A stretch of 24,000 nucleotides of DNA from Sphingomonadales bacterium (GCA_022844405.1 JALHLV010000003.1:74846-98845); one strand, 5' to 3'. Shown: positions 2,319 through 23,951, counted from the first letter of the stretch. The notes: generated by a model from the sequence alone, not told the origin. Numbers and translations: made by a program.

Positions 2319-4868
2319 TCAGAACTCCGCGGTCAACTCGATGCCCCACGCCCGACCCGGTCCCACCGTGCCAGCCGCGAACAGCGGCGCGATGATCGCC
2401 GGGAACTCGTTGCGCTCGTTCGTCAGGTTGGTGCCGAACACCGCCACCTTGAAACCGTCCCAGCTGTAGCTGATCGAGGCGTTCAGATCTTCACGAGACG
2501 GCACCAGTCCGGTCGCCAGGTTGAGCAGGTCGCCCTGCACCTTGCTGATGACGCTGTACTTCACGCCGAGCTGCAGGTCGCCGGGGCCGATGGCGATGGT
2601 GTAGGTACCGCCGATGCCCCAGGTCCATTTCGGCGCGTTCCGGGGGGTCAGGAAGTTGGCGTCGACGATGCACTCGATGCTGCCCGAGCAACTGTCGTTC
2701 GGGTTCACGTCAGTCCGGAAATCCTTGTACGTGGCGTCCAGATAGCCGACCGAGGCGAACAGGCTCAGATTGTCGGTCACCACCGCCTGGAGTTCCGCCT
2801 CGGCGCCCTGATAGATAACCGAGGCCACGTTGCTGAACACCGTCACCACCGTGTTGGTGGTCGGGTCGAACTGAACCGATTGTTCCTGCTTGTTGTGGAA
2901 GTTGTTGCGGAACAGGGCCACGTTGGTCTGCAGCCGGTTGTCGAACCACTGGGCTTTCACGCCAACCTCGAAGGACTGCGAGGTCTCGGGATCGTATTGG
3001 TCGCGCACGAAGTCGGAGACGTTCTGGTTGACGCCGAAGAAGCCGCCCGAATGCCAGCCCTTGGCGTAGGAGCCGTAAACCAGGATGTCGTCCGTGGCCT
3101 TCCAGGACAGGCCGGCCTTCGGCGAAACGTCGGTCCAGCTGTTCCTGAGGTCGGCGAACTCGGGGAAGTTGTCGATGCCGACACGATCCAGCGGCGTGAT
3201 GTAGGCCTGGGCGCCGATGAAGTGCTTCTTCTCCCGGGTCCAGCGGACACCGGCCGACAGGGTCAGGTTGGGGATGAACTCCCAGTCCACATGCGCGAAG
3301 GCCGCCTGCGACGAGGTCGTCTGGCTCTCGAAGAGTTTGTTCGGGCTGTTGGGCCCGTAGGCCACGTCGCCCGCACCGGAGTCACATCTTACCTGACCGA
3401 ACACAGCCTTCAGCCCAGGCGTGGTTCGCGGCGCGAGACAGGCGGCGGCCGGCGTGGCGAAACCGGTCAGCGTCGCCAGCGACGGGTCGATCCAGGTATT
3501 GGTCGCCAGCGAATAGCCGCTGAGCGACGACACGAACTGCCAGAACGAGCCGCCAGTCACCCACTTCTGGTCGAACTTGCTGTGGAAGAGATACCCGCCA
3601 ACGACCGCGTCGATCTTGCCGAGCGAGGTATCCCAGTTGCCCTCGAGGCGGAATTCCTCGCTCCACTGCTTGTAGGTGTTGTCACGCTCGATGGTGATGA
3701 AGTCAGCCGTCGAGCCGTCGAAGTCGTATTTGCGGTACTCGCGCATGTCGCGGATGCCGGTCACCGACACCAGCTTCACCTCGTCGCTCAGCGTAGCCGA
3801 CATGCTCAGCGTATAAGCCGTTGTGTTGACGCGCCCGGGATTGGGCAGATCGGTGGCGATCTCCTTTCGCGGAAACGCCAAGGTGGTGCGGCAAGGCACG
3901 TTTTGGATGCCGAAGACGCCCGGCAGGAAGCAGCCGAGGAACCCGCCGCTAAAATCCGGTTCGCGGGGATCGGTGGGTTTGGAACGCACACCGGCGGCGA
4001 AGTTCCAGTTGGTCAGGTAGGCGCCGCCCTGGCCATGGTCCTCGAACCGCTCCACCGTGAACTGGGCTTCGAACCAGTCGTTGGGCGTCGCCAGCAGGGT
4101 CAGGCCGTAGTTCTTGTAGTCCTTTTGTGGCTGTGTGGTGTTCAGAAAGGTGTTCCTGAACCAGCCATTGCGGGCCTGGACGGTGAAGAACGCCTTCGCC
4201 GCCAGCTTGTCCTGCACCACCGGCGCGTTGATCACGGCGCGGAATTCCTGCTGATTCCACCGACCGAACGTGTACTGCGCCTTGGCGCCGAATTCCCCGG
4301 TTGGCCGGCTGCGGATCACGTTGAGCACGCCGCCTACCGTATTGCGGCCGTAAAGCGTTCCCTGCGGGCCGCGCAGGATTTCAATACGCTCGAGGTCGAA
4401 ATTGTCGATCACCTGCCCAGACAGCGAGCCCAGATAGATGCCGTCAATCATGACCGCGATCGGCGAGTCCAGCGAGTTGTCGTCCGTTCGGGTCGGGCTG
4501 ATGCCTCGGATGGTAATCGACGAGCCGCCCGCGCGCTCTGGATTTGCGTCGATGCGCACATTGGCCGAATAGCCGTTCAGGTCGCGGATATCGCGGACGG
4601 TCGCCAGCTTCAACTCGCTGGTCAGCGCGGTCATGGCGACCGGCACTTCCTGCGCCGTTTCCTCGGTCTTGCGAGCGGTGACCAGCACCTGCTCCACTCT
4701 GGGCGAGGATTTAGGCGGCGGATTGTCTGCGACCTTCTGGGGTGGCGCGGCGGCCGCGTCCGGCGCCGGCTGCGCCGCGGCGATGGTCGGAACGGTCACG
4801 ACGAGCAGGGTGGCTAGTGACGTTGCGGCACAGGATGCAATGCGTCCAACCGCGACAAATCGCTTCAT
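2319..4868 (-). CDS. TonB-dependent outer-membrane receptor (paralog 1)
   Basis: ORF 2319..4988. Start trimmed to ATG 4868, which has GGGGAGGG upstream and gives signal peptide MKRFVAVGRIASCAATSLATLLVVTVPTIAAAQPA. Plug-domain motifs VLVTARKTEETAQEVPVAMTAL and RIEILRGPQGTLYGRNTVGGVLNV are present. Long beta-barrel ends in the aromatic terminal residue ...WGIELTAEF. Confidence 0.9.
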   Translation of the reverse strand: MKRFVAVGRIASCAATSLATLLVVTVPTIAAAQPAPDAAAAPPQKVADNPPPKSSPRVEQVLVTARKTEETAQEVPVAMTALTSELKLATVRDIRDLNGYSANVRIDANPERAGGSSITIRGISPTRTDDNSLDSPIAVMIDGIYLGSLSGQVIDNFDLERIEILRGPQGTLYGRNTVGGVLNVIRSRPTGEFGAKAQYTFGRWNQQEFRAVINAPVVQDKLAAKAFFTVQARNGWFRNTFLNTTQPQKDYKNYGLTLLATPNDWFEAQFTVERFEDHGQGGAYLTNWNFAAGVRSKPTDPREPDFSGGFLGCFLPGVFGIQNVPCRTTLAFPRKEIATDLPNPGRVNTTAYTLSMSATLSDEVKLVSVTGIRDMREYRKYDFDGSTADFITIERDNTYKQWSEEFRLEGNWDTSLGKIDAVVGGYLFHSKFDQKWVTGGSFWQFVSSLSGYSLATNTWIDPSLATLTGFATPAAACLAPRTTPGLKAVFGQVRCDSGAGDVAYGPNSPNKLFESQTTSSQAAFAHVDWEFIPNLTLSAGVRWTREKKHFIGAQAYITPLDRVGIDNFPEFADLRNSWTDVSPKAGLSWKATDDILVYGSYAKGWHSGGFFGVNQNVSDFVRDQYDPETSQSFEVGVKAQWFDNRLQTNVALFRNNFHNKQEQSVQFDPTTNTVVTVFSNVASVIYQGAEAELQAVVTDNLSLFASVGYLDATYKDFRTDVNPNDSCSGSIECIVDANFLTPRNAPKWTWGIGGTYTIAIGPGDLQLGVKYSVISKVQGDLLNLATGLVPSREDLNASISYSWDGFKVAVFGTNLTNERNEFPAIIAPLFAAGTVGPGRAWGIELTAEF

Positions 4869-5017
4869 GGCAGGTCCCTCCCCAAAAAAACGACCGCCCT
4901 TGACGGCCGCTATTGCATCGGTTCCCACATTCCATGGTGGAAATCTCGTGCCGTCGCGGACCCGGCGATCGATGAGAAAAGCGTGCACCCGCCAATGGCG
5001 TTAATCAACGACTATTT
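4869..5017 (-). promoter_or_regulatory. Structured 5' leader plus promoter-proximal conserved box of TBDR paralog 1
   Basis: Minus-strand elements: box AAATAGTCGTTGATTAAC (5017..5000); conserved core GGCACGAGATTTCCACCATGGAATGTGGGAACCGATGC (4952..4915) containing hairpin UUUCCAC-CAUGGAAU-GUGGGAA; then CGGCCG-UCAAGGG-CGGUCG followed by U7 (4909..4884) directly before the SD. The same layout lies upstream of paralog 2. Confidence 0.35.
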
Positions 5018-5071
5018 GTTCCGGCCGTATTGTTAACATCTCCTCAGTCGTTTGAAACAGAACGCCTCTGC

Positions 5072-5105
5072 AACGAAAAGAGGTGCGCCGTCGCCGGCGC
5101 ACCTC
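5072..5105 (-). terminator. Rho-independent terminator downstream of TBDR paralog 2
   Basis: The minus strand reads GAGGTGCGCCG-GCGA-CGGCGCACCTC-TTTTCGTT. That is a perfect 11-bp GC-rich stem, a 4-nt loop and a U-tract, 30 nt after the stop at 5136. Confidence 0.7.
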
Positions 5106-5135
5106 CCGTTCTTCAAGCTCTCGAAGTGGCGCGGA

Positions 5136-7676
5136 TCAGAACTCCGCGGCCAGCTCGACGCCCCAGCTCCAGCCCGGCCCGATAGTGCTGGACGCGAACA
5201 GCGGCGCGATGATTGTGGGAACCTCGTTCCGCTCGTTGGTGAGGTTGCGGCCGAACATCGTCACCCGGTACTTGTCCCAGATGTAGCTGACCGACGCGCT
5301 CAGGTCGTCGCGGGGCCGAACAGCGCCCAGCGTCTGGTTGAGCAGATTGCCCTGGACCTTGCCGACATAGGCGTACTTGACGTTGAGCTGCAGGTCGCCC
5401 GGTCCGACCGTCACCGTGTAGACGCCGCCGATGCCCGCCGTCAGCTTCGGTGCGTTCCGGACCTCAAGATAGGAAGCGTCGACGACGCACTCTGGCTTGC
5501 CGGTGCAGGTGTCGTTCGGGTTGACGTCGGTGAAGAAGTCCTTGTACTGGGCGTCCAGCAGGCCGATCGATCCGAAGAGGTTGAGCTGATCGGTCACGGC
5601 GGCCTGGACCTCGGCCTCGATACCCTTGTAGATCACGTTCGCCACGTTGGAGAACACCGTCGCGACCGTATTCGTCGACTCGTCGAACTGCACCGCCTGT
5701 TCCTGCTTGTTCTTGAAGGTGTTGTGGAACAGCGCGATGTTGGTCTGCAGCCGGTTGTCGAACCACTGGGCCTTCACGCCGATTTCGAACGACCGCGAGG
5801 TCTCGGGATCGTACTGGTCGCGCTCGAAGTCGGCGACGTTCTGGTTCACGCCGAAGAAGCCGCCCGAGTGCCAGCCTTTCGAGAAATTGCCATAGAGCAG
5901 GATATCGTCGGTCGGCTTCCACGACAGGCCCACCTTGGGCGAGATGTCGTTCCAGCTATTCTCGAGGTCGGCGAACTCAGGGTAGTTGAACTCGTAGGCT
6001 CGCGAAACCGGCGCCAGATAGGCCTGGGCCGCGACGAAGTGCTTCTTCTCATGGCTATAGCGGACGCCGGCTTCCAGCGTCAGTCCGGGCAGGAACTCCC
6101 AGTCCGCGTGCGCGAACAGCGCTTGCGCGGTCGTCTTCTGGTCCTCGAACAGCTTCTGCACCAGCTTGGGGCCATAGGCTGTGTCGCCCGCCGCGGTGTC
6201 GCAGCGTACGTTGCCGAACCGCAGAGCAAGACAGGCGCCGACCGGCGTGAAGCCCGGGTGCGCCGCCTGGGCCAGGGGGCTGAGCCAGGTGTTGGACGCC
6301 AGCGAATAGCCGCTGAGCGCGCCGATGAACGTCCAGAAGTCGCCGCCGGTCACCCAGTTCTGGTTGAAGTCGCTGTACCAGTAGTACCCACCGATCAAGG
6401 CGTTGATCTTGCCCATCGATGTATCCCAGTTGCCTTCCAGCCGGACTTCGCCGCTGAACTGCTCGAACTGGTTGTCGCGCTCGATGGTGATGTGGTCCAC
6501 CTCGGTGCCGTCGAAGTCGTACTTGCGGTACTCCTTCATGTCGCGGTAGCCGAGCAGCGTGACCAGCTTCAACTCGTCGCTGAACTCGTAGGACGCGTCC
6601 AGGGTGAACGCCGTCGTGCGCACCCGGCCCGGATTGGGCAGGTCGGTCGAGATGTTCTTCGGGTCGTACGGAATCGTCGTCCGGCACGGCACGCTGGGCA
6701 CCGCGCTGATCAGGCCCGGCAAGAAGCAGGACAGGAAACCGCCGGCGTAATTGGGATCCTCGGGCCGGTCGGTCGGTGGCAGCACGCCCGGCGCGAAGTT
6801 CCAGCTGGTCAGGCCGGCGCCGCCCTGGCTGTCGTCCTCGAACCGCTCGATGGTCAGCTTGGCCTCGAACCGGTCGTTCGGCGTCGCCAGCAGGGTGATG
6901 CCATAGTTCATGTAGTCGCGCTGCGGCTGCCGCTCGTCACGGAACTCGTTGTAGAACCAGCCTTTGCTGTTCAGCGAGGTGAAAAACGCCTTGGCCGCCA
7001 GCTTGTCCTCGACGATCGGGATGTTGAACACGCCGCGGAACTCGTGCGTGTCCCACCGGCCGTAGGTGTATTGCAGCTTGGCGCCCCACTCGCCGGTCGG
7101 CCGGCTGCGGATCGCGTTCAGCACACCGCCGACCGTGTTGCGGCCGTACAGCGTGCCCTGCGGGCCGCGCAGGATTTCGATGCGCTCGATGTCGAAATTC
7201 TCCAGCACCTGACCCGACAGCGAGCCCAGATAGATGCCGTCGATCATGACGGCGATCGGCGAATCGAACGAGTTGTCGTCCGTGCGGGTCGGGCTGATGC
7301 CGCGGATGGTGATCGAGGCGGCGCTGGCGCGCGACGGATCGTTGTCGATGCGCACGTTCGCCGAATATCCATTCAGATCCTTCAGGTCGCGCACCGTGGC
7401 CAGCTTCAGTTCCGCGTTGATCGCGGTCATCGCGACCGGCACGTCCTGGGCCGATTCCTCGGTCTTTCGTGCCGTCACCAGCACGGAGTCGACGCGCGGG
7501 GCCGTCCGCGTCGCCTGGGCGAGTTGCTCGCCGCTGACCGCGGTTACCGGCGCCGGTGTTTCGCGCATGGTCTCCGCCGCGGACGCCCCGAAAGGCAGCA
7601 ACAGAACAGGTAGTGCGAACGCGGCCGTTCTGGCGGCGCGCGAGAACTCGCGAGGCGAGCGTGGCCTGTAAGTCAT
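5136..7676 (-). CDS. TonB-dependent outer-membrane receptor (paralog 2)
   Basis: ORF 5136..7766. Start trimmed to ATG 7676 (GGGGAGGAAAAC upstream), giving MTYRPRSPREFSRAARTAAFALPVLLLPFGASAAE. Collinear and highly similar to paralog 1 throughout: VLVTARKTEESAQDVPVAMTAI, RIEILRGPQGTLYGRNTVGGVLNA, ...WGVELAAEF. Confidence 0.9.
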   Translation of the reverse strand: MTYRPRSPREFSRAARTAAFALPVLLLPFGASAAETMRETPAPVTAVSGEQLAQATRTAPRVDSVLVTARKTEESAQDVPVAMTAINAELKLATVRDLKDLNGYSANVRIDNDPSRASAASITIRGISPTRTDDNSFDSPIAVMIDGIYLGSLSGQVLENFDIERIEILRGPQGTLYGRNTVGGVLNAIRSRPTGEWGAKLQYTYGRWDTHEFRGVFNIPIVEDKLAAKAFFTSLNSKGWFYNEFRDERQPQRDYMNYGITLLATPNDRFEAKLTIERFEDDSQGGAGLTSWNFAPGVLPPTDRPEDPNYAGGFLSCFLPGLISAVPSVPCRTTIPYDPKNISTDLPNPGRVRTTAFTLDASYEFSDELKLVTLLGYRDMKEYRKYDFDGTEVDHITIERDNQFEQFSGEVRLEGNWDTSMGKINALIGGYYWYSDFNQNWVTGGDFWTFIGALSGYSLASNTWLSPLAQAAHPGFTPVGACLALRFGNVRCDTAAGDTAYGPKLVQKLFEDQKTTAQALFAHADWEFLPGLTLEAGVRYSHEKKHFVAAQAYLAPVSRAYEFNYPEFADLENSWNDISPKVGLSWKPTDDILLYGNFSKGWHSGGFFGVNQNVADFERDQYDPETSRSFEIGVKAQWFDNRLQTNIALFHNTFKNKQEQAVQFDESTNTVATVFSNVANVIYKGIEAEVQAAVTDQLNLFGSIGLLDAQYKDFFTDVNPNDTCTGKPECVVDASYLEVRNAPKLTAGIGGVYTVTVGPGDLQLNVKYAYVGKVQGNLLNQTLGAVRPRDDLSASVSYIWDKYRVTMFGRNLTNERNEVPTIIAPLFASSTIGPGWSWGVELAAEF

Positions 7677-7825
7677 CGTGGTTTTCCTCCCCAAAAGCGA
7701 CCGCCGGGACGGCAACCTTGGGCATCGGACTTCGCATTCGATGGCGAAACCTCGTGCCCGCAGCATGCCAGACGGTCAATGCGACCAAGCCTGCCCTTGG
7801 CCCGAGAGTTAATCAACGATTATTT
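7677..7825 (-). promoter_or_regulatory. Structured 5' leader plus promoter-proximal conserved box of TBDR paralog 2
   Basis: Minus-strand elements: box AAATAATCGTTGATTAAC (7825..7808); conserved core GGCACGAGGTTTCGCCATCGAATGCGAAGTCCGATGCC (7758..7722) with hairpin UUUCGC-CAUCGAAU-GCGAAG. The stem sequence differs from paralog 1 but pairing is kept. A weaker hairpin plus U4 lies before the SD. Confidence 0.35.
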
Positions 7826-7990
7826 TTTTTGACGGTGCGTGCTTAATTTTTCAACACCGTGGTCCACAACGCTTTTTATAGACGGATACAATTTTGGCAG
7901 ACCCTCTGCCTATTCGCTATGACCGCTCGCCACCACACGCCTGCGGCTCCTGACGGGTAGGCACCTCTTCGAGGGGAATGACAGCCTGCG

Positions 7991-9007
7991 TTAGCCGACC
8001 GTCACCTCCCATGCCTTCTCTGTCGCCGGGGCGATGGCGATGTCCACATCCAGGAAACGCCTGATGATGTCGGCGTTGGTCCGGGTGTGCAGGCTCGGAC
8101 GCAGGGTGGTGAAGTGCCCGCCGCCCGCCAGCGCCATCGGGATCAGCAACTGGTCCGCCAGGTGCGGGCCGGCCGCCGCATCCACCGCCAGGTAGCGCAG
8201 CGCATTGGCCGCCGTCCGTTCGGCCACGTGCTCGGCGCGCACGCCAACCTTGCCGTAGCCGGCGAACACTTCGGTCACCTGCTCGAACGCCAGGGTCACC
8301 AGCAGCACGTTGCCAGGACCCGGGCTCCGTTCGGCGCCCTGGAGGTGCAACGCATCCGTGCTCAGCCCCAGCCGTATGCCGACTTCCTTCAGTTCGCGGT
8401 CGGCGATGTCGCGGGGCAGGTTGGCGATCAGGGCGTGCGCCATCCGCGACGTCTCCGCGCCGCGCGACGGCAGGTCGAGGCGGGCAAGCGACTTCACCGG
8501 CGACAACGTCACCGTGAACCGCCCTCCGCCGACCGGATAGAAGCCGTGCCGCTCCAGCGACGCCTCGGCCGTCACCCCCATGCGCCGCAGCAGCGGCAGG
8601 AACGCACGGTCGATAAACTCGAAGGGCGGCCCGCCGAAATTGTGGGTGCCGCCCTCGAATGCCAGCGTCGATGGCCGGTCGGCCTGCAGCAGCGCGGGCA
8701 GCACGGTCTGAAACACCAGCGTCGTGCTTCCGGCCGAGCCGACCGAGAACGTGTAGTCGCCGCCGCGCACCTTGCCGGGCACGAACGTCAGCGCGCGCGA
8801 GCCGATGCCCGCGCCGGTGACCTCGGCGTCCGAAATCGCCGCCGCCGCGTTGACCGCGGTCAGGTGCTGGCGCATCAGGCCACCCCGCTCCCGCTTGGCG
8901 CGAATGTTGACGATCCGAAAGGCCTGGCCGGTAACGATGGACAACGCCAGGGCAGTCCGCAGGATCTGCCCGCCGCCTTCGCCCTCCGACCCGTCGATGG
9001 TAATCAC
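7991..9007 (-). CDS. rtcA: RNA 3'-terminal phosphate cyclase RtcA
   Basis: ORF 7991..9031. ITIDGSEGEGGGQILRTALALSIVTGQAFRIVNIRAKRERGGLMRQHLTAV..., FSVGSAGSTTLVFQTVLPAL and ADQLLIPMALAGGG align by eye with E. coli RtcA. GTG 9007 (AGGAAC 6 nt upstream) gives 338 aa starting MITIDGSEGEGGGQ, the same length and N-terminus as E. coli. The track start at 9031 is a TTG. Confidence 0.9.
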   Translation of the reverse strand: MITIDGSEGEGGGQILRTALALSIVTGQAFRIVNIRAKRERGGLMRQHLTAVNAAAAISDAEVTGAGIGSRALTFVPGKVRGGDYTFSVGSAGSTTLVFQTVLPALLQADRPSTLAFEGGTHNFGGPPFEFIDRAFLPLLRRMGVTAEASLERHGFYPVGGGRFTVTLSPVKSLARLDLPSRGAETSRMAHALIANLPRDIADRELKEVGIRLGLSTDALHLQGAERSPGPGNVLLVTLAFEQVTEVFAGYGKVGVRAEHVAERTAANALRYLAVDAAAGPHLADQLLIPMALAGGGHFTTLRPSLHTRTNADIIRRFLDVDIAIAPATEKAWEVTVG

Positions 9008-9036
9008 TATATTGTTCCTACTCCCAAACAATGGAC

Positions 9037-9069
9037 GGCGGCGCGCGCGGGATCTCCGCGCGCGCCGCC
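9037..9069 (-). other. Very stable GC stem-loop in the rtcB-rtcA intercistronic spacer
   Basis: GGCGGCGCGCGCGG-AGATC-CCGCGCGCGCCGCC: a perfect 14-bp all-G/C stem with a 5-nt loop. It lies 20 nt after the rtcB stop and about 30 nt before the rtcA start. It is followed by GTCCATTGTTTGGG, only a weak U-tract. Confidence 0.45.
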
Positions 9070-9089
9070 TGGACCATGCGTGAAAAAGG

Positions 9090-10316
9090 TTATCCCTTCA
9101 CGCATACCACCTGGCGAAGCGTGTGGACGATCTCGACCAGATCCTTCTGCGCCTCCATCACCGCATCGATCGGCTTGTAGGCGGCAGGAGTCTCGTCGAT
9201 GACGCCCGCGTCCTTGCGGCACTCCACACCCTGTGTCGCCTCGATATGCTCTTCGAGGCTCACCAGCTTCTTCGCCTTCGTCCGCGACATCACCCGCCCC
9301 GCGCCATGCGAGCAGCTATGGAAACTCTCGTCGTTCCCCAGCCCGCGCACGATGTAGGACCGTGCCCCCATGCTTCCCGGGATGATCCCCAGGTCGCCCT
9401 TGCGGGCGCGCACCGCACCCTTGCGGGTCACGAACACCTCTTCACCGAAATGATGCTCGCGCGTCACGTAGTTGTGGTGGCAGTTCACCGCCTCCACTTC
9501 CGCGTCGAACGGCTTGGCGATCACCGACCGCATGGCGTCGACGATGTTGGCCATCATCAGCTGCCGGTTGGCCATGGCGAACGCCTGCGCCCATTCCACG
9601 GCGAAGACGTAGTCGTCGAAGTGCCGGGCGCCTTCGGGGAAGTACGCCAGGTCCTCGTCCGGCAGGTTCGCCTCGATCCGGCGCATGTCCTGCTTGGCCA
9701 GTTCGATGAAAGCGCGGCCGATGGCGTTGCCCACGCCGCGCGAGCCTGAATGCAGCATGAACCAGACCCGGTCCTCCTCGTCGAGGCAGACCTCGACGAA
9801 ATGGTTGCCGGTTCCCAGCGTTCCCAGATGGGTCACGGTGTTCGCGCCCTTCAGGTTGCGCTGGCCGTCGACGATCCGCTGGAAACCGGGCTCAAGCACG
9901 GCCCAGGCCTTCAGCGTCCGCTCCGGCGGCTCGCCCCACGACCCGGTGTCGCGCTTGCCGCGTCCCACCGAACGCCCATGCGGCACCGCCCGTTCAATCG
10001 CGAAACGCATCTCACGCAGGCTGTCGGGCAGGTCCGACGCCGTCAGCGTCGTCCGCGCCGCCATCATGCCGCAGCCGATGTCGACGCCGACCGCCGCGGG
10101 GATGATCGCCCCCTTGGTCGGAATCACGCTGCCCACCGTGGAGCCGATGCCCTGATGCACGTCCGGCATCACCGCCAGCCACTTGTGGATGAACGGCATC
10201 CGCGCGGTCTTCACCAGCTGCTCGCGCGCGCCGTCCTCAACGGGCACGCCGTGCGTCCACATCTTGATGGGCACGCCACCGGTTTCGGTCATGGTCTCAT
10301 ATGTATGCTCAGCCAT
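9090..10316 (-). CDS. rtcB: RNA-splicing ligase RtcB (3'-phosphate/5'-hydroxyl RNA ligase)
   Basis: ORF 9090..10595. The true start is ATG 10316 (GACGGAGGAAAGAAA upstream), giving 408 aa: MAEHTYETMTETGGVPIKMWTHGVPVEDGAREQL..., MPDVHQGIGSTVGSVIPT, GTLGTGNHFVEVC, SCSHGAGR. The 93 upstream codons of the track ORF overlap the non-coding Y-RNA modules. Confidence 0.92.
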   Translation of the reverse strand: MAEHTYETMTETGGVPIKMWTHGVPVEDGAREQLVKTARMPFIHKWLAVMPDVHQGIGSTVGSVIPTKGAIIPAAVGVDIGCGMMAARTTLTASDLPDSLREMRFAIERAVPHGRSVGRGKRDTGSWGEPPERTLKAWAVLEPGFQRIVDGQRNLKGANTVTHLGTLGTGNHFVEVCLDEEDRVWFMLHSGSRGVGNAIGRAFIELAKQDMRRIEANLPDEDLAYFPEGARHFDDYVFAVEWAQAFAMANRQLMMANIVDAMRSVIAKPFDAEVEAVNCHHNYVTREHHFGEEVFVTRKGAVRARKGDLGIIPGSMGARSYIVRGLGNDESFHSCSHGAGRVMSRTKAKKLVSLEEHIEATQGVECRKDAGVIDETPAAYKPIDAVMEAQKDLVEIVHTLRQVVCVKG

Positions 10317-10354
10317 TTTCTTTCCTCCGTCTCGTTCATTCCGCCCGACAGGAC

Positions 10355-10482
10355 GCGGCGACAAGGGACCGGTGAAACCTCGCTTTCTGCTCTGCCGCTG
10401 AACTACGGTCTCCCTGGGGAAAACCGGCGGGACTCGAACCCGCGCCACGAAAGTCCAATGTAGTTCCACCTGCATTCGCCGC
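10355..10482 (-). ncRNA. yrlA: Y-RNA-like module 4 with permuted tRNA-like domain (YrlA-like)
   Basis: The minus strand reads GCGGCGA-AUGCA-GGUGGAAC-UACAUUGG...GCGGG-UUCGAGU-CCCGC (T-arm), then a closed 9-bp acceptor-like hairpin CGGUUUUCC-CCA-GGGAGACCG. Next come UA, GUUC-AGCGGCA-GAGC (D-arm), then ...GUUUCACC-GGUCCCUUG-UCGCCGC. The terminal stems pair 7 bp and 8 bp. Confidence 0.7.
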
Positions 10483-10490
10483 TGACCGTA

Positions 10491-10602
10491 GGCGCGACAA
10501 GCTGGTGCGAGACATTTCCGCCCCTCGTGAGAGCGGCGGACGAAGGCTTCGAACCTTCTCTCACCGAAGTGATTACCATGTAGTCCCGCGGGCATTCGCG
10601 CC
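10491..10602 (-). ncRNA. Y-RNA-like module 3 (T-arm-like hairpin only, no D-arm)
   Basis: GGCGCGA-AUGCCC-GCGGGAC-UACAUGG...UCAC-UUCG-GUGA...GAAGG-UUCGAAG-CCUUC...GUCUCGC-ACCAGCUUG-UCGCGCC. It has the same two-stem, asymmetric-loop architecture as the other modules, built from different stem sequences that still pair. Confidence 0.55.
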
Positions 10603-10675
10603 GCCGATGTCGTGAGCCGTCAAACGATCGTCCTTTCCTCTGTTCGTTCTTCCATTCGATCCGCCAGACAAGGGC

Positions 10676-10800
10676 GCGGCGACAAGGTTTCGGTGAAACA
10701 CTCCTGCTCTACCGTTGAGCTACGGACCCGAAGGCCCGGCGGGACTCGAACCCGCAACCCGGCGATGTACAATCCATGTAGTTCCACCTGCATTCGCCGC
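10676..10800 (-). ncRNA. yrlA: Y-RNA-like module 2 with permuted tRNA-like domain (YrlA-like)
   Basis: GCGGCGA-AUGCA-GGUGGAAC-UACAUGG...GCGGG-UUCGAGU-CCCGC (T-arm), then CGGGCC-UUCG-GGUCCG (closed acceptor-like hairpin). Next come UA, GCUC-AACGGUA-GAGC (D-arm), then ...GUUUCACC-GAAACCUUG-UCGCCGC. Confidence 0.7.
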
Positions 10801-10806
10801 TGAGCG

Positions 10807-10897
10807 CCGAGCAGCAAGATTGTGCATGACCTAAGTTTAGGACCATTATAAGTGGCCCGGGGACTACCCCTATGTAGTCATGCACGCATCCGCCCGG
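10807..10897 (-). ncRNA. Y-RNA-like module 1 (no tRNA-like domain)
   Basis: Begins 7 nt after the rsr stop. CCGGGCGG-AUGC-GUGCAUGAC-UACAUAGGGGUAGUCCCC...GUCAUGCAC-AAUCUUG-CUGCUCGG. Lower stem 8 bp (two G-U pairs), upper stem 9 bp perfect. It has the same AUGC / ..CUUG internal loop and UACAU motif as modules 2-4. Confidence 0.5.
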
Positions 10898-10904
10898 CGC
10901 AGTG

Positions 10905-12461
10905 CTAGTCTGTCAGATCGATCTCCTCGATGCGGTCCACCAGATAGGTGGGACCGGTTTCACCCGTCGCGAAGGCGGCCATCGCCTCGAACACCGCGTC
11001 GGAAAACCCGCCGATATTCAGGATGTCAGCCGACCCCTGCGCCTGTGTCGTGCCGTAAGGCTGGATATCGACGCAGATCAACCGGGCTTCCGGATTGGCG
11101 TTCTTCAGCATGCGCCACTGGCGCATGGTCTCGGTGTTCTGCGGCCTAGCCGCATCCACCCAGGACTGGTTGTCCGACACGAAGATCACCGTATCCACCG
11201 TCGCGTTCTCGTCGTTCAGGCGCCGCAGCGGCGCGGAACAGTTGGTTCCGCCACCACCGATCCCCGCCAGCGCGGCGGCGTTCGCCGTCACGCTCGCCTC
11301 CGGATCGAGGCGCACCTTCACCACGTCGTTCTCGAACGGCAGCACCCTAGCGGAAGGGTTCTTGCGCACCACCGCCGCGGCCACCAGTGCCGCCACATCG
11401 ATGCACCGCACCGCCGTGGCCGCGCCGCGCCGGTGACCGGTCACGGGCGACGCCATGGAGCCGGACACATCGGGGCAAACCGCCACCCGGCCCGCGAAGG
11501 CCGGCACGTTCCGCACCGCCGTCTCCATCGCCGCATCGAGCGCCTCCAGCACCGCTGCTGGCACGGAACCTGTCGCCATCCGTGCCGCCATCAGCTGGTA
11601 CGGGAACACCCGCGCCCGCTTGATCTCGTGCGGATCCCGTAGGCGCTCCGCCAACAGCGCGGTCATGCCCTCTACCTCGAACACGCCGTGGCGCGCGAAG
11701 GTGTTCAGGTTCATGCGCAGCGTCTGCCAGCGTGCGTTGCGGGCGATCGCCGCCCAGGCCTCGCGGCCCAGCGGCAGCGCGGTTAGCATCTGGAACGGGA
11801 CGTCCGGCACCTCGGCCGTTTCGCCCGTCTTGAACGCCTCGAACCGGCGGATCGCCTCCGGCAGCAGCGCTGCGTCGTGCGGCTTGCCGATCAGGTATCC
11901 GAACAGCGCCTCCCGTCCCGGATCGACTGGAGTCGGATGCACCATCCGGATCACGTCGGCTAGCGACGGATCTTGGCCCACGGCGGCCGCGATCAGGCGG
12001 TCGTCGGAAGCCTGGATCAGCCAGTCGGCGACCAGCCGCTTCGGCCGCGAACCCAGCGACTTCCGGCCCATCGCGCCTGAGCGCATGATCTGCACGAAGG
12101 TGCGCAGCATGCGTCCGTTGTCGATGACCCGGTCGAACACGGGGGCCGCGAATTCGGGTCCGTTCACCGTCAGGTAGGCCAGCAGCAGCGCGGGGGCATC
12201 CTTCATGAAGCCGTGCCGGCGGGCATAGACCGCCGTCCTGGCGACGAATGCCGGATCGACCGCCTGGGCCGCGTCCAGCACCCCCGCCAGCTGCTCCCGC
12301 GCTTCCGCATAGAAGGTTCCGTTCAGGCACCCGGTCACCGCCAGCTGCGCCAGTCTATGGCGCGGCGTATAGACGAAGGCCGGAGCGCCTTCCCGGTTCC
12401 GGCCATCCGGCCGCGGGAGCAGCTTTCCTCTGATTGACGCAAACACGGATTTGTTTGCCAT
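10905..12461 (-). CDS. rsr: Ro60-related protein Rsr (TROVE domain plus C-terminal vWA domain)
   Basis: ORF 10905..12470. MANKSVFASIRGKLLP...LAQLAVTGCLNGTFYAEAREQ...ARRHGFMKDAPALLLAYL is TROVE-type. CPDVSGSMASPVTG carries the DxSGS MIDAS motif of the vWA domain. I prefer ATG 12461, which has AGAGGA 8 nt upstream. ATG 12470 has no spacer to its SD. Confidence 0.9.
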   Translation of the reverse strand: MANKSVFASIRGKLLPRPDGRNREGAPAFVYTPRHRLAQLAVTGCLNGTFYAEAREQLAGVLDAAQAVDPAFVARTAVYARRHGFMKDAPALLLAYLTVNGPEFAAPVFDRVIDNGRMLRTFVQIMRSGAMGRKSLGSRPKRLVADWLIQASDDRLIAAAVGQDPSLADVIRMVHPTPVDPGREALFGYLIGKPHDAALLPEAIRRFEAFKTGETAEVPDVPFQMLTALPLGREAWAAIARNARWQTLRMNLNTFARHGVFEVEGMTALLAERLRDPHEIKRARVFPYQLMAARMATGSVPAAVLEALDAAMETAVRNVPAFAGRVAVCPDVSGSMASPVTGHRRGAATAVRCIDVAALVAAAVVRKNPSARVLPFENDVVKVRLDPEASVTANAAALAGIGGGGTNCSAPLRRLNDENATVDTVIFVSDNQSWVDAARPQNTETMRQWRMLKNANPEARLICVDIQPYGTTQAQGSADILNIGGFSDAVFEAMAAFATGETGPTYLVDRIEEIDLTD

Positions 12462-12493
12462 TGCTCTCATCCTCTATTTCACACCTTCCCAGT

Positions 12494-12509
12494 AGCAACG
12501 GGCGTGCCA
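12494..12509 (-). promoter_or_regulatory. Sigma-54 (-24/-12) promoter of the rsr-Y RNA-rtcBA operon
   Basis: The minus strand reads CTGGCACGCCCGTTGCTA, i.e. TGGCAC-N5-TTGCT. This matches the TGGCAC-N5-TTGCW consensus with correct spacing, about 33 nt upstream of the rsr ATG and facing it. A sigma-54 activator (rtcR) is encoded divergently. Confidence 0.75.
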
Positions 12510-12665
12510 GATCAGCGCAAGAGTCGGCATATTTTCTATAAACCATTGGTATTACATTAATAAAAACTTTAATCAGATTCTCGAGTCAGTATTCCGTGGA
12601 TGGTGAACTCCACATCTTTATAGAATATAATATACACAAATATCTGTTTGGATCACATTGCGGAC

Positions 12666-14261
12666 ATGAAGCGACAGGTCGTCATCAGCTTTCTCGGCAG
12701 CGTCCTCGATTCCGGCACCCACGCCCGCCGGTGGGAGAAGTGGCGTCCCAATATTGGCATGTGCCAGCAGGACGACCTGGTCATCGATCGCCTTGAACTG
12801 ATTTACGACAAGCGCATCACCACGCTCTTGACCACCGTCCGGCGTGACATCGCCATGGTGTCGCCCGAAACCGAGGTGCGCCCCCAGCTCATGGACCTAA
12901 GGGATCCCTGGGATTTCGAAGAGGTTTACGCGGCGCTGCACGACTTCGCCCGCGCCTATCCGTTCGACCCGGAAACCGAGGATTACCTGATCCAGATCAC
13001 CACCGGCACCCACGTGGCGCAGATCTGCATGTATCTGCTAACCGAGGCCCACTACTTCCCCGGCCGGCTGCTGCAGCTGTCGCCGCCGCGCGGCCGGAGC
13101 GGCTTGATCGCCGGCACCTACTCGATCATCGATCTCGACCTGTCCCGCTACGACCGCATCGCCACCCGCTTCGAAGCCGAGCGCGACGAGGCCGCTTCAT
13201 TCCTGAAGTCCGGCATCGCCACGCGCAATGCGGCCTTCAACCACATGATCGACCAGATCGAGCATGTCGCCATCCGCTCCTCGGCGCCGGTCCTGCTGAT
13301 GGGGCCGACGGGCGCGGGTAAATCCCATCTCGCGCGCCGCATCCACGAGCTCAAACAGGCACGGCGCCAGCTCGCCGGCCCGTTCGTCGAGATCAACTGT
13401 GCCACTCTGCGTGGCGACGGCGCTATGTCGACCCTGTTCGGCCACACCAAAGGCGCATTCACCGGCGCCGTCGGCGCGCGGCCAGGCCTGCTGCGCGCCG
13501 CTGACAGCGGCATGCTGTTCCTCGACGAGATCGGCGAACTGGGCCTCGATGAGCAGGCCATGATCCTGCGCGCCATCGAGGACCGCACCTTTCTGCCCGT
13601 CGGGTCCGACAAGCCGGTTCAGAGCGACTTCCAGCTCATCGCCGGCACCAATCGCAATCTCGGGCAGGCGGTTCGCGAAGGCCGCTTTCGCGAGGATCTC
13701 TACGCGCGGCTCAACCTGTGGACCTTCCACCTGCCCGGACTACGCGACCGGCGCGAGGACATCGAGCCCAACATCGCCTTCGAGCTGGCACGCCATCGCG
13801 GCGAAACCGGCCGCAACGTTACCATGAACCGAGAGGCTGAACGCCGCTTCCTCGCCTTCGCCCTTGATCCTGCGTCGCTGTGGTCGGCCAATTTCCGCGA
13901 CTTGGCCGCGTCGATCACCCGTATGGCGACCCTCGCGCCGTCCGGGCGGATCACCGAGGACGTGGTTGCCGAGGAGATCGCACGCCTGCGGCTGCTGTGG
14001 CGCGGCGCCGAAACTTCCGGCGGGGAAGCCGTGCTCGCCGATGTCCTGCCCCCCGAGCGGCTTGACGCCGTCGATCCGTTCGACCGGCCCCAGCTCGCCC
14101 GCGTGATCGAGACCTGCCGGCGCCATCGTTCCCTGAGCGCTGCGGGGCGTGAGCTGTTCGCTGCTTCCCGCCGGGAGAAGTCGACGCATAACGACGCCGA
14201 CCGCCTGCGCAAATATCTTGCCCGCTTCGGATTGGCGTGGGGCGACGTCACCGCGCCCTAA
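12666..14261 (+). CDS. rtcR: Sigma-54-dependent transcriptional activator RtcR (N-terminal CARF-type sensor, AAA+ core, C-terminal HTH)
   Basis: ORF 12648..14261. ATG 12666 gives MKRQVVISFLGSVLDSGTHARRWEKWRPNIGMCQQDDLVIDRLELIYD..., collinear by eye with E. coli RtcR. Shared features include ITTGTHVAQIC, Walker A GPTGAGKS, GAFTGA, DEIGEL and the C-terminal DADRLRKYLARFGL. Predicted length is 531 aa. Confidence 0.92.
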   Translation: MKRQVVISFLGSVLDSGTHARRWEKWRPNIGMCQQDDLVIDRLELIYDKRITTLLTTVRRDIAMVSPETEVRPQLMDLRDPWDFEEVYAALHDFARAYPFDPETEDYLIQITTGTHVAQICMYLLTEAHYFPGRLLQLSPPRGRSGLIAGTYSIIDLDLSRYDRIATRFEAERDEAASFLKSGIATRNAAFNHMIDQIEHVAIRSSAPVLLMGPTGAGKSHLARRIHELKQARRQLAGPFVEINCATLRGDGAMSTLFGHTKGAFTGAVGARPGLLRAADSGMLFLDEIGELGLDEQAMILRAIEDRTFLPVGSDKPVQSDFQLIAGTNRNLGQAVREGRFREDLYARLNLWTFHLPGLRDRREDIEPNIAFELARHRGETGRNVTMNREAERRFLAFALDPASLWSANFRDLAASITRMATLAPSGRITEDVVAEEIARLRLLWRGAETSGGEAVLADVLPPERLDAVDPFDRPQLARVIETCRRHRSLSAAGRELFAASRREKSTHNDADRLRKYLARFGLAWGDVTAP

Positions 14262-17638: not shown

Positions 17639-18105
17639 CGTCCAGGGTGATGGTCTCGCTCCGCGTCGCCGCCACGCCGGAACGGGCGTTCGCGGTATTC
17701 ACCCGGGACATTGGCCTGTGGTGGCGGCATGACGGCCTGTTCGCCTTCGACACGGGCCAGACGGGCGTCTTGCGCTTCGAGCCGGGTCCCGAAGGCCGGC
17801 TGATCGAGGTCTATGAGGACGGCGACGTCTTCGAGATCGGCCGCGTAACCGCCTGGGAGCCGGGCCGCCGCCTTGCCCTGTCCTGGCGCCAGGCCAGCTT
17901 CGCCCGTGGTCAGGAAACCCGCGTGGAAGTCCGTTTCGATCCGGTCGGCGCCGAAACCCGCGTCACCGTCGTGCACAGCGGCTGGGACGCCATTCCCCAG
18001 CCTCACGCCGCCCGCCACGGCTTTCCGCTCGGTCCGTTCCAGCAGCGCCAGGCCGAACATTGGCAGCGACTGCTGGCGTCCTTCCGGGAAGCGGCTACTC
18101 GGTGA
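17635..18105 (+). CDS. SRPBCC (Aha1/START-like) domain protein
   Basis: Part of ORF 17563..18105. SLRVAATPERAFAVFTRDIGLWW...GRVTAWEPGRRLALSWR...TRVEVRFDPVGAETRVTVVHSGWD is typical of the SRPBCC partners of ArsR regulators. GTG 17635 overlaps the ArsR stop (GTGA) with GGAGGG 8 nt upstream. The alternative start is ATG 17650. Confidence 0.75.
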   Translation: MTSRVMVSLRVAATPERAFAVFTRDIGLWWRHDGLFAFDTGQTGVLRFEPGPEGRLIEVYEDGDVFEIGRVTAWEPGRRLALSWRQASFARGQETRVEVRFDPVGAETRVTVVHSGWDAIPQPHAARHGFPLGPFQQRQAEHWQRLLASFREAATR

Positions 18106-22637: not shown

Positions 22638-22663
22638 GCCGGTTTCTGTTCCCTACCGCGCGG

Positions 22664-23830: not shown

Positions 23831-23951
23831 GCAACTCTCCCGCAACAATGAACGCCGAAGACGCCGGGCCACCCGTAAATTAGTCGGGCGGCGGCGTGCA
23901 TGTCTCCGATTTTTGTTTGAACGACGAAACGAACCAATTGTTTCCTCGCAT

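Follow-up and report, generated by a model that had tools for sequence, protein, structure and literature searches.

A probable RtcR-controlled RNA-repair and surveillance operon with four Y-RNA-like modules in a Sphingomonadales bacterium

A 6.3-kb stretch (7991-14261) of the window, the 24,000-nt stretch of DNA that we analysed, very probably forms a complete operon for RNA repair and surveillance that RtcR controls, of the same type as Salmonella rsr-yrlBA-rtcBA. The plus-strand gene rtcR is divergent from a minus-strand sigma-54 promoter, which is followed by rsr, four Y-RNA-like modules, rtcB and rtcA (Table 1). All parts are intact, and their order and strand are as described in a first-pass annotation of the same DNA, which had claimed a complete module here; each element that it listed was found in place. 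Profile, covariance-model and comparative tests upheld the gene identities and gene order, the divergent rtcR, the promoter and the four Y RNAs. The promoter and the Y-RNA array are kept in relatives, and the Y stem covaries. A scan inside the operon called neither a sigma-70-like promoter nor a terminator.

This kind of operon is not new: for Salmonella, the literature already covers the system, what regulates and induces it, and the decoy hypothesis. Because the stretch is a well-conserved copy of a known operon, it amounts to a good annotation rather than a novel system. What is modestly new is the four-module array with three structural classes, together with a tRNA-like variant in close relatives.

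Table 1. Features of the operon and its control region, numbered from the first letter of the window
Feature	Position	Strand	Description
rtcR	12666..14261	+	531 aa; N-terminal RtcR/CARF, AAA+ sigma-54 interaction domain, C-terminal HTH
Candidate RtcR upstream activating site	12642..12653		weak palindrome ATC-N6-GAT
AT-rich divergent control region	12530..12629		inverted pair TATTTTCTATAAA / TTTATAGAATATA
Sigma-54 (-24/-12) promoter of rsr operon	12494..12509	-	TGGCAC-GCCCG-TTGCT = TGGCACGCCCGTTGCT
rsr	10905..12461	-	Ro60 orthologue; TROVE ring + vWA/MIDAS domain; 518 aa from ATG 12461
Four tandem Y-RNA-like modules	10352-10900	-	between rsr and rtcB
Y module 1	10804..10900	-	short Y RNA without tRNA-like domain, YrlB-type position
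Y module 2	10673..10800	-	canonical YrlA: Ro-binding stem + tRNA-like domain
Spacer after module 2	10603..10672	-	70 nt; paralogue of rtcB leader including Shine-Dalgarno-like GAGGAAAG
Y module 3	10488..10602	-	variant Y RNA without D arm
Y module 4	10352..10482	-	second YrlA-type tRNA-like Y RNA, module 2 paralogue
rtcB	9090..10316	-	RNA 3'-phosphate/2',3'-cyclic-phosphate to 5'-OH ligase, 408 aa
rtcB-rtcA hairpin	9037..9069	-	perfect 14-bp GC hairpin without U tract
rtcA	7991..9007	-	RNA 3'-terminal phosphate cyclase, 338 aa from GTG 9007

RtcR and the divergent control region

RtcR matched the NCBIfam RNA_repair_RtcR equivalog over residues 1-529 with 821 bits against a cut-off of 650, Pfam RtcR (PF06956) over residues 2-183 (E=1.5e-82) and Sigma54_activat over residues 185-353 (E=1.4e-51). 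GAFTGA and the Walker A and B motifs were seen in its translation. The open reading frame begins with a TTG at 12648, and the ATG at 12666 (MKRQVV...) agrees with the family model.

The TGGCAC-N5-TTGCT promoter claimed by the first-pass annotation at 12494-12509 was found there as TGGCACGCCCGTTGCT, a perfect match that is the only one within the 24-kb window and that none of 100 shuffles reproduced. It is located ~33 nt before the rsr start at ATG 12461 (~24 nt before an alternative ATG at 12470). Of 18 related loci, 15 have a TGGCAC-N5-nnGC element 25-48 nt ahead of the rsr start, and in the other three no clean -12 GC was seen at the expected spacing. These three loci, and the fact that the upstream activating sites are only guessed, might suggest that the operon lacks RtcR/sigma-54 control here and that the promoter match is fortuitous. 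We regard this as extremely improbable given the perfection and uniqueness of the match and its conserved position before rsr; furthermore, the element is always accompanied by a divergent rtcR, and the intergenic region has no called sigma-70-like promoter.

The weak palindrome at 12642-12653 precedes the rtcR ATG by 13-25 nt and is placed ~135-145 nt upstream of the -24 element. Loci L001, L003, L012, L013, L014, L015, L019 and L021 have palindromes of the TTATC-N6-GATAA type, 110-157 nt upstream of their -24 elements. By position, the palindrome in the window would be the counterpart of these and is a candidate RtcR site. The two arms of the inverted pair in the AT-rich region, TATTTTCTATAAA (12530-12542) and TTTATAGAATATA (12617-12629), were 92% complementary in a repeat search. 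Both contain the 8-mer TTTATAGA, which has three copies in the window against 0.01 expected and also adjoins the rtcR start in L009, L011 and L019.

Gene products and conservation of the layout

The alternative start of rsr at ATG 12470 would give a protein of 521 aa. The start at 12461 is more likely, because it is preceded by a Shine-Dalgarno sequence, AGAGGA, at 12470-12475 and yields the MAN... N-terminus that is conserved in relatives. Rsr matched Pfam vWA_Ro60 with 74.5 bits (cut-off 27.7) and keeps the DVSGSM MIDAS motif. Its score of 19.4 bits missed the whole-protein gathering score of 23 for Pfam PF05731 TROVE, and the NCBIfam Rsr equivalog aligned over the full length, yet with 80 bits against a cut-off of 900. 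As both scores are under their cut-offs, we consider this Rsr to belong to a divergent Ro60 clade.

Comparison with solved structures places the protein in the Ro60 family. As a single sequence, Rsr aligned over its full length with PDB 2nvo, the Rsr of Deinococcus radiodurans (E=2e-22, residues 25-504), and full-length matches to 2nvo, 9nen and 1yvp were obtained with both the single sequence and a clade profile. The clade profile gave E-values of 3.6e-34 for 2nvo, 3.7e-24 for human Ro60 and 1.3e-22 for Xenopus Ro60, and it aligns across the TROVE region of the solved Ro60 structures. All 20 clade members matched TROVE at E<=0.01 (best 3.4e-10) as well as vWA_Ro60. The assignment of the Ro60 fold therefore stands despite the TROVE shortfall. 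The first-pass annotation had proposed profile searches as a check and had counted an unassigned TROVE domain against its own reading; the searches were positive for RtcR, RtcB, RtcA and vWA_Ro60, and the narrow miss, confined to Pfam TROVE, is overturned by the full-length structure matches and the clade profile.

RtcB covered the entire Pfam RtcB model with 432 bits and matched PDB 2epg (E=9e-37) and Pyrococcus horikoshii RtcB (E=1.6e-33). Its metal-binding and histidine motifs, DVHxG, GxDIxCG, GxGNHF, HxGSRG, HHN and SHGAGR, are intact, and a Shine-Dalgarno sequence, GGAGGAAAG, stands ahead of the ATG. The 91-nt spacer between rtcB and rtcA has a fold energy of -48.5 kcal/mol (z=-5.4); its hairpin, which was not called in the terminator scan, may be a processing or stability element. 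The rtcA reading frame opens with a TTG at 9031, which would give 346 aa. Residues 1-325 of the 338-aa protein from the GTG start aligned with E. coli RtcA (1qmh; E=7e-89); in this alignment, His307 is the counterpart of His309, which is adenylylated in the E. coli enzyme. RtcA also matched Pfam RTC (253 bits) and RTC_insert, and the NCBIfam equivalog with 430 bits against a cut-off of 352.

The layout of rtcR, divergent rsr, two to five Y modules, rtcB and rtcA is retained in most of 24 related loci. These loci come from several phyla, and 18 of them have rtcR divergent from rsr. Downstream there is a close RtcB in 10 loci, a distant RtcB-family gene in a further 6, and rtcA in 11, of which 8 have the close RtcB. 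The divergent Rsr clade is thereby shown to travel with rtcR and rtcBA across several phyla. In 17 related loci there were 43 copies of the Y-stem signature; each was on the same strand as rsr and, L007 excepted, directly downstream of it.

The four Y-RNA-like modules

The 5' signature CGRATGC-N7-ACTACAT has exactly four matches, all on the minus strand between rsr and rtcB, against 0.01 expected. These four copies bear out the four Y-like RNAs claimed from the first inspection, of which Rfam formally passes one only. Against the gathering score of 69 bits of the Rfam RF02553 YrlA covariance model, module 2 scored 77.3 bits (E=1.5e-16, full model 1-114), module 4 scored 56.0 bits (E=7e-12, full model) and module 3 scored 25.4 bits in a local search (E=0.005), while module 1 gave no YrlA match in the Rfam search. 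Modules 1, 3 and 4 are therefore not formal members of YrlA. The value of the annotation, which is solid, is that sequence amounting to five genes and four small RNAs are assigned, three of the latter being missed at standard Rfam thresholds.

The tRNA-like domain of module 2 consists of a V hairpin, a T arm, an acceptor-like hairpin and a D arm. Modules 4 and 2 share 81% identity, their Y stem and T arm being the same, and the similarity extends into the flanks. In module 3 (signature CGAATGC-N7-ACTACAT; fold energy -55.9 kcal/mol, z=-3.3), GGUAA and three hairpins lie within the Y stem, one capped by UUCG, one resembling a T arm (GAAGG-UUCGAAG-CCUUC) and one long; this module is syntenic with module 3 of L001, L003 and L023. 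Module 1 begins 4 nt past the rsr stop codon and has the signature CGGATGC-N7-ACTACAT, outer and inner Y stems and a fold energy of -47.7 kcal/mol (z=-5.5). A short first module has the same position in L001, L003 and L023, and was also seen in L004, L005, L008, L014 and L016.

For YrlA RNAs, Chen et al. 2014 (PMC4201824) describe a GNCGAAN0-1G motif in the Ro-binding stem, on its 5' strand. This motif is present as GGCGAAUG in modules 2 and 4 and as GCGCGAAUG in module 3. Its counterpart in module 1 is GGCGGAUG, where the closing pair of the motif is G-C instead of A-U, the U on the 3' strand having changed to C in compensation. Among 39 modules from 13 related loci, 92% of cells in the Y stem were paired, a value inflated by the 3' strands having been picked partly by complementarity, and 15 of 17 pairs had changed on both sides. 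Covariation in the stem was 0.63, compared to 0.21 in shuffles (none of 500 reached 0.63) and 0.09-0.15 when the partners were slid. Conservation and covariation across all modules were strongest in the Ro-binding stem, not in the tRNA-like domain. Rsr is predicted to bind and stabilise the four Y RNAs; what the modules themselves show is the conserved motif for binding and the covarying stem.

A different reading is that module 2 is the sole working Y RNA and that modules 1, 3 and 4 are decaying duplicates or structured spacers with no role in Rsr function. The Rfam results are in line with this, as the curated YrlA threshold is passed by module 2 alone and module 1 is unmatched; in addition, module 3 is short of a D arm, and module 4 looks as if module 2 and its flank had been duplicated in this lineage. 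We consider such a reading very unlikely, since all four modules keep the exact 5' signature and both stems, and all four positions are filled in L001, L003 and L023, whose Rsr proteins are 63-65% identical, with compensatory changes in the stem. Arrays of 3-5 modules recur in distant relatives, and no studied species is reported with fewer than two Y RNAs, some of which are not tRNA-like and escape homology searches (PMC4201824).

The tRNA-like modules may also be mainly processing punctuation or decoys rather than Ro60 tethers, acting either as cleavage signals of the RNase P/Z type, by which the rsr message is split from that of rtcBA, or as competitive inhibitors of anticodon nucleases. 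The Mycobacterium smegmatis YrlA is cut by RNase P and gains CCA (PMC4201824), and the modules lie exactly between coding genes, some of them spaced by only 3-5 nt. The decoy idea for tRNA-like Y modules, which the first-pass annotation had raised along with possible roles as substrates or ligands, is not new, YrlA having been proposed as a competitive inhibitor of anticodon nuclease (Hughes et al. 2020, PMC7790460). As a main role, punctuation or decoy activity appears unlikely to us, given that module 1 has the conserved Ro-binding stem even though it has no tRNA-like part, and that this stem is the element under the strongest conservation. Moreover, because the Y stem takes the place of the anticodon loop in modules 2 and 4, these would not be expected to yield, through the known route, a 5' half cut in the anticodon loop and bearing a cyclic phosphate. 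Tethering of Rsr by the Y modules is nonetheless compatible with these roles, which are not mutually exclusive with it.

Going beyond Rsr binding, the gap between rsr and rtcB may hold a conserved toolkit of structurally distinct Y RNAs that exceeds YrlA and a companion. This proposal is tentative and on balance doubtful. Its members would be a short non-tRNA module, canonical YrlA, where the anticodon loop gives way to the Y stem, and a third class, whose tRNA cloverleaf appears to be entered by the Y stem via the D loop. This class would be complete in module 3 of L001, L003 and L023, which has a D stem, an anticodon-like arm capped by a tetraloop, a T arm and a 7-bp acceptor-like stem that GCAA closes, and under the same tentative proposal module 3 of the window would derive from this class by loss of the D stem. 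No description of a D-loop-entry class was found in a search of two Y-RNA papers. If the proposal is true, one Ro60 ring could be re-targeted in tRNA damage, since the topologies would show different tRNA-mimic faces to partners. Arrays of 3-5 modules with heterogeneous inner domains could help to define the contribution of Rsr and Y RNA, a question left by Hughes et al. 2020 (PMC7790460).

Proposed mechanism and comparison with known systems

We infer all of the biochemical and regulatory steps at this locus by homology. RtcR activates the Salmonella rsr-yrlBA-rtcBA operon, and its CARF domain binds 5' tRNA halves with a 2',3'-cyclic phosphate end (Hughes et al. 2020, PMC7790460). According to PMC4201824, which cites Chen et al. 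2013, PNPase is tethered by Rsr and Y RNA. The background given in the first-pass annotation on the Salmonella operon and RtcR, on the CARF recognition of tRNA ends and on the link to PNPase agrees with these two sources.

By analogy, RtcR, a sigma-54 enhancer-binding protein, would be held inactive by its N-terminal CARF domain. When damaged tRNAs pile up as 5' halves with 2',3'-cyclic phosphate, the CARF domain would bind them, RtcR would oligomerise and its AAA+ domain would then open the sigma-54 promoter. A single transcript would carry rsr, modules 1 to 4, rtcB and rtcA, in that order. The four Y RNAs would be excised from it, and each would bind the Rsr ring via its GNCGAAN0-1G stem. 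Their differing inner domains, two being full tRNA mimics, one a T arm only and one absent, may adapt Rsr to different partners such as PNPase. RtcA would convert 3'-phosphate (or 2'-phosphate) ends to 2',3'-cyclic phosphate, and RtcB would join 2',3'-cyclic phosphate ends to 5'-OH ends.

The rsr-yrlBA-rtcBA operon found in Salmonella enterica of serovar Typhimurium (Chen et al. 2013; PMC7790460) agrees with the one here in its parts and their order: RtcR, with CARF and AAA+ domains, is divergent, a sigma-54 promoter precedes rsr as the leading gene, and Y RNAs separate rsr from the rtcB and rtcA that follow. Both systems have a non-tRNA-like Y RNA before the tRNA-like YrlA and share the GNCGAAN0-1G stem motif. 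In contrast to the two Y modules of Salmonella, there are four here, including two YrlA paralogues and the T-arm-only variant, and the Rsr comes from the divergent clade and scores below both the NCBIfam Rsr and the Pfam TROVE thresholds. With respect to RF02553, modules 2 and 4 share the full model, namely the T arm, acceptor-like hairpin, D arm and Ro-binding stem, and lie on the same strand as rsr and within 4 kb of it, as PMC4201824 requires. The differences are that module 4 misses the gathering score, module 3 has no D arm and module 1 is without the whole tRNA-like domain.

The Rsr/Yrn1-Yrn2/PNPase system of D. radiodurans likewise has a Ro60 orthologue, to which Rsr has its full-length match, and several adjoining Y RNAs on a polycistronic precursor, which is predicted here. 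There, however, the Y RNAs are upstream of rsr and the locus is without rtcBA and rtcR. The link to PNPase belongs to that machine and is putative here.

The rtcR/rtcBA locus of E. coli was reportedly described by Genschik et al. in 1998. It shares the divergent rtcR and the sigma-54-dependent rtcBA, whereas rsr and Y RNAs are absent between rtcR and rtcB, where the intergenic region is 188 nt. With the starts corrected, RtcR, RtcB and RtcA of the window are 531, 408 and 338 aa long compared to 532, 408 and 338 aa in the annotated E. coli locus, a near-identity of length that the first-pass annotation had already noted, and the rtcB DNA is 66% identical between the two.

Protein-coding genes of the locus

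The first-pass annotation had described a complete RtcR, sigma-54, Rsr, Y RNA, RtcB and RtcA module. An ORF map and profile searches confirmed its gene list and coordinates, and the features of the locus and its surroundings are collected in the table below. RtcR carries the Pfam RtcR (CARF) domain at residues 2-183 and Sigma54_activat at residues 185-353, and the metal-binding and GMP-histidine motifs of RtcB were seen in an alignment to solved RtcB structures. A 338-aa version of RtcA begins at a GTG start (9007) with AGGA just upstream, and aligned with E. coli RtcA (1qmh) from residue 1 (E=7e-89). In this alignment the adenylylated His309 of the E. coli protein corresponds to His307. The His of 'GPHLADQL' was rejected as the RtcA catalytic histidine, since E. 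coli His309 aligns to the His of 'PSLHTR'. The lengths had been said to match those of the E. coli proteins, and this was correct, the annotated E. coli locus encoding RtcR, RtcB and RtcA of 532, 408 and 338 aa. In contrast to the window, the E. coli locus has zero genes between rtcR and rtcB.

Features of the locus and its surroundings (positions in the window)
Feature	Position	Strand	Description
Two tandem TonB-dependent receptor genes	2319-7766	-	889 and 876 aa; directly downstream of rtcA
Third TTTATAGA	7875-7882		~110 nt downstream of rtcA
rtcA ORF	7991-9031	-	Pfam RTC 253 bits; NCBIfam cyclase equivalog 430 bits (cut-off 352)
rtcB-rtcA hairpin	9037-9069	-	Arms GGCGGCGCGCGCGG / CCGCGCGCGCCGCC; 5-nt loop
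rtcB	9090-10316	-	408 aa; Pfam RtcB 432 bits
Y module 4	10352-10482	-	
Y module 3	10488-10602	-	
Spacer after module 2	10603-10672	-	70 nt
Y module 2	10673-10800	-	
Y module 1	10804-10900	-	Begins 4 nt past the rsr stop codon
rsr	10905-12470	-	Pfam vWA_Ro60 74.5 bits (vs 27.7)
Sigma-54 promoter	12494-12509	-	TGGCACGCCCGTTGCT
Inverted pair of 13-mers	12530-12542, 12617-12629		Each contains TTTATAGA
ATC-N6-GAT palindrome	12642-12653		~140 nt upstream of the -24 element
rtcR	12666-14261	+	531 aa; NCBIfam RtcR equivalog 821 bits (cut-off 650)
RND efflux operon	18095-23872		OEP, AcrB-type and HlyD-type genes

The first-pass annotation had made the Rsr assignment depend on a TROVE domain. Pfam TROVE scored 19.4 bits in the window protein, under the 23-bit cut-off, and the NCBIfam Rsr equivalog, although aligning over its entire length, reached 80 bits where the cut-off is 900. 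The assignment itself nevertheless stood. As a single sequence, the protein matched D. radiodurans Rsr (2nvo) over residues 25-504 (E=2e-22), and a profile built from 20 members of the clade (alignment A4) gave full-length matches to 2nvo (3.6e-34), human Ro60 (3.7e-24) and Xenopus Ro60 (1.3e-22). TROVE was matched at E<=0.01 by all 20 clade members, the best at 3.4e-10, and the MIDAS motif DVSGSM was found in the window protein. Collectively, these results indicate that Rsr is a genuine Ro60 orthologue belonging to a divergent clade. For its start we favour the ATG at 12461, which gives the conserved N-terminus MAN... and is served by a putative Shine-Dalgarno sequence, AGAGGA.

Related loci and the sigma-54 promoter

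Scanning a single genome for each species yielded 24 loci with Rsr relatives (handles of the form L001), at 52-65% identity, from Alpha-, Beta- and Gammaproteobacteria, Verrucomicrobiota, Acidobacteriota and Planctomycetota. By tblastn, 18 of the 24 have rtcR divergent from rsr. A close RtcB lies downstream of rsr in ten and a distant RtcB-family gene in six more, typically after a gap of 700-900 bp between rsr and rtcB; rtcA was found downstream in 11, eight of these with a close RtcB. Four loci have 1-2 kb of extra sequence between rtcB and rtcA (L005:9480-10487, L006:9715-11106, L009:9636-10602 and L020:3413-5350), probably one or two genes, and L009 has a second rtcB copy past rtcA.

The proposed sigma-54 promoter, TGGCAC-N5-TTGCT, was borne out. 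Nothing else in the 24 kb window matches TGGCAC-N5-TTGCW, none of 100 shuffles contained a match, and the element lies ~33 nt upstream of the rsr start. A TGGCAC-N5-nnGC element is likewise present 25-48 nt upstream of rsr in 15 of 18 related loci. With the match unique and its position kept in relatives, a fortuitous resemblance is very unlikely. A scan for sigma-70-like promoters and terminators inside the operon called none, counts being at or below shuffle expectation; this is consistent with a single transcript and otherwise uninformative.

The control region between rtcR and rsr is AT-rich and holds the inverted pair of 13-mers and the ATC-N6-GAT palindrome. In relatives, palindromes of the TATC-N6-GATA type lie 110-157 nt ahead of the -24 element, and TTTATAGA is also found beside the start of rtcR in L009, L011 and L019. 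Judged by sequence, the TTTATAGA repeats and the palindrome are possible RtcR binding sites.

The Y-RNA array

Rfam at the gathering threshold reported one YrlA, module 2, at 77.3 bits. A permissive local search added module 4 over the full model (56.0 bits, E=7e-12) and module 3 (25.4 bits, E=0.005), and module 1 was undetected in both searches. Modules 1, 3 and 4 were rejected as Rfam YrlA members, falling below the gathering score. ARAGORN found zero tRNA and zero tmRNA genes in the whole window, and the Y modules are therefore not tRNA genes. All four modules share a 5' strand, ...G(N)CG(A/G)AUGC followed by a 7-8-nt helix and ACUACAU, and a 3' strand in which the complementary helix is followed by CUUG(U/C)(C/U)GC.... 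The window has exactly four copies of the pattern CGRATGC-N7-ACTACAT (0.01 expected), all on the minus strand between rsr and rtcB, in agreement with the four Y-like RNAs of the first-pass annotation. The GNCGAAN0-1G motif assigned to Rsr recognition (Chen et al. 2014, PMC4201824) falls within the shared 5' signature.

Among the related loci, one to four above-threshold Rfam YrlAs lie just past rsr in ten (L003, L004, L005, L008, L009, L011, L013, L017, L019 and L023). The 5' signature has 43 copies in 17 loci; every copy is on the rsr strand and, L007 excepted, immediately downstream of rsr. The closest loci, L001, L003 and L023, have the four modules of the window in identical order, and L003 adds a fifth. 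To examine the stem, 5' and 3' halves of 39 modules from 13 loci were joined as a two-helix Y stem (alignment A2), some 3' partners being set by hand from alignment A1. In this set 92% of cells are paired, a percentage inflated by locating 3' halves partly through complementarity, and in 15 of the 17 pairs both partners vary. The covariation score was 0.63 against 0.21 in shuffles, was reached by none of 500 shuffles, and fell to 0.09-0.15 when partners were slid by 1-3 columns. The many compensatory pair types seen are harder to obtain from a complementarity-based choice of 3' halves. That module 2 alone is functional is disfavoured, given conservation and compensatory changes at all four positions.

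In L007, a Pyrinomonadales metagenome-assembled contig (L007:1678-5791), 23 tRNA genes and then one Y-stem signature lie immediately upstream of rsr, and rtcR, rtcB and rtcA are absent nearby. The arrangement recalls D. radiodurans tRNA/Y RNA co-transcription, or a phage tRNA array.

The modules differ in what the Y stem carries. Module 1 (fold z=-5.5) has two small hairpins within the stem and neither T nor D arm. L001, L003 and L023 have a short first module there too, and such a module also occurs in L004, L005, L008, L014 and L016; its place ahead of YrlA agrees with the Salmonella order, YrlB then YrlA. Modules 2 and 4 both have the canonical YrlA form of a tRNA mimic; they share 81% identity, and their stems and T arms do not differ at all. 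As position 4 in close relatives is taken by another type, with a T arm only, module 4 probably arose by a lineage-specific duplication of module 2. Since the similarity reaches into the 3' flank, the spacer after module 2 is a paralogue of the rtcB leader, most likely a relic of this duplication. It contains a Shine-Dalgarno-like GAGGAAAG and then a 16-codon TTG-initiated ORF entering module 3.

Module 3 (fold z=-3.3) comprises GGUAA, a UUCG hairpin, a second hairpin resembling a T arm (UUCGAAG loop) and a third, long one, and has no D arm. Its approximate counterparts in the closest relatives (L001:7905-8045, L003:7965-8105 and L023:7905-8045) read as a tRNA cloverleaf, and RNAalifold independently predicts this fold: the D stem has 4 bp, the arm at the anticodon-arm position has 6 bp and a tetraloop cap, the T stem has 5 bp and a T loop of 7 nt, and GCAA closes an acceptor-like stem of 7 bp. 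The order is GGUA, D-stem 3' strand, anticodon-like arm, variable stretch, T arm, acceptor-like stem with GCAA, UA, D-stem 5' strand. In this predicted fold the Y stem of these relatives is inserted into the D loop, in contrast to canonical YrlA, where it takes the place of the anticodon loop. Compensatory changes occur in five pairs among only three sequences, two of them nearly identical. Window module 3 lacks the D stem.

Comparison with the Salmonella operon and genomic surroundings

Every defining feature of a Salmonella-type operon that can be tested from sequence was found at the locus, and its best explanation is the published Salmonella model; beyond the presence, integrity, arrangement and conservation of the parts, we infer its workings by homology. 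In that model (Hughes et al. 2020, PMC7790460), the RtcR CARF domain would bind 5' tRNA halves with 2',3'-cyclic phosphate, leading RtcR to oligomerise and activate sigma-54 transcription. RtcA would generate cyclic ends and RtcB seal them, and Rsr with Y RNA could tether PNPase (PMC4201824). The first-pass annotation had suggested that the tRNA-like modules could be ligands. Because the Y stem replaces the anticodon loop in modules 2 and 4, anticodon-loop cleavage of the known kind should be unable to release a 5' half from them. It is possible that the tRNA-like modules act mainly as processing signals or nuclease decoys, as already proposed (Hughes et al. 2020, PMC7790460), which is not exclusive of a Ro60 role; against this reading, what all modules share, and what covaries, is the Ro-binding stem. 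Compared with the Salmonella operon, the window has four Y modules rather than two, an Rsr from a divergent clade and a variant module 3. Rsr and Y RNAs adjoining RtcB in diverse bacteria have been noted before (Hughes et al. 2020, PMC7790460), and the operon type is therefore already known.

The 58-82-nt rtcB-rtcA spacer (fold z=-5.4) contains a perfect hairpin of 14 bp, all G-C, that is not followed by a U tract and may serve in processing, stability or attenuation. The corresponding gap in L001 is only ~37 nt, so the hairpin appears unconserved there. Megablast of the whole module against plasmids returned only partial matches, at 74-77% identity, to rtcB or rtcR; plasmid origin is therefore unsupported and a close relative absent among plasmids. 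An island-like GC anomaly was not found in the composition profile. The flanking genes encode TonB-dependent receptors, a luciferase-like monooxygenase, a globin and an RND efflux pump, an ordinary chromosomal context unrelated to the module.
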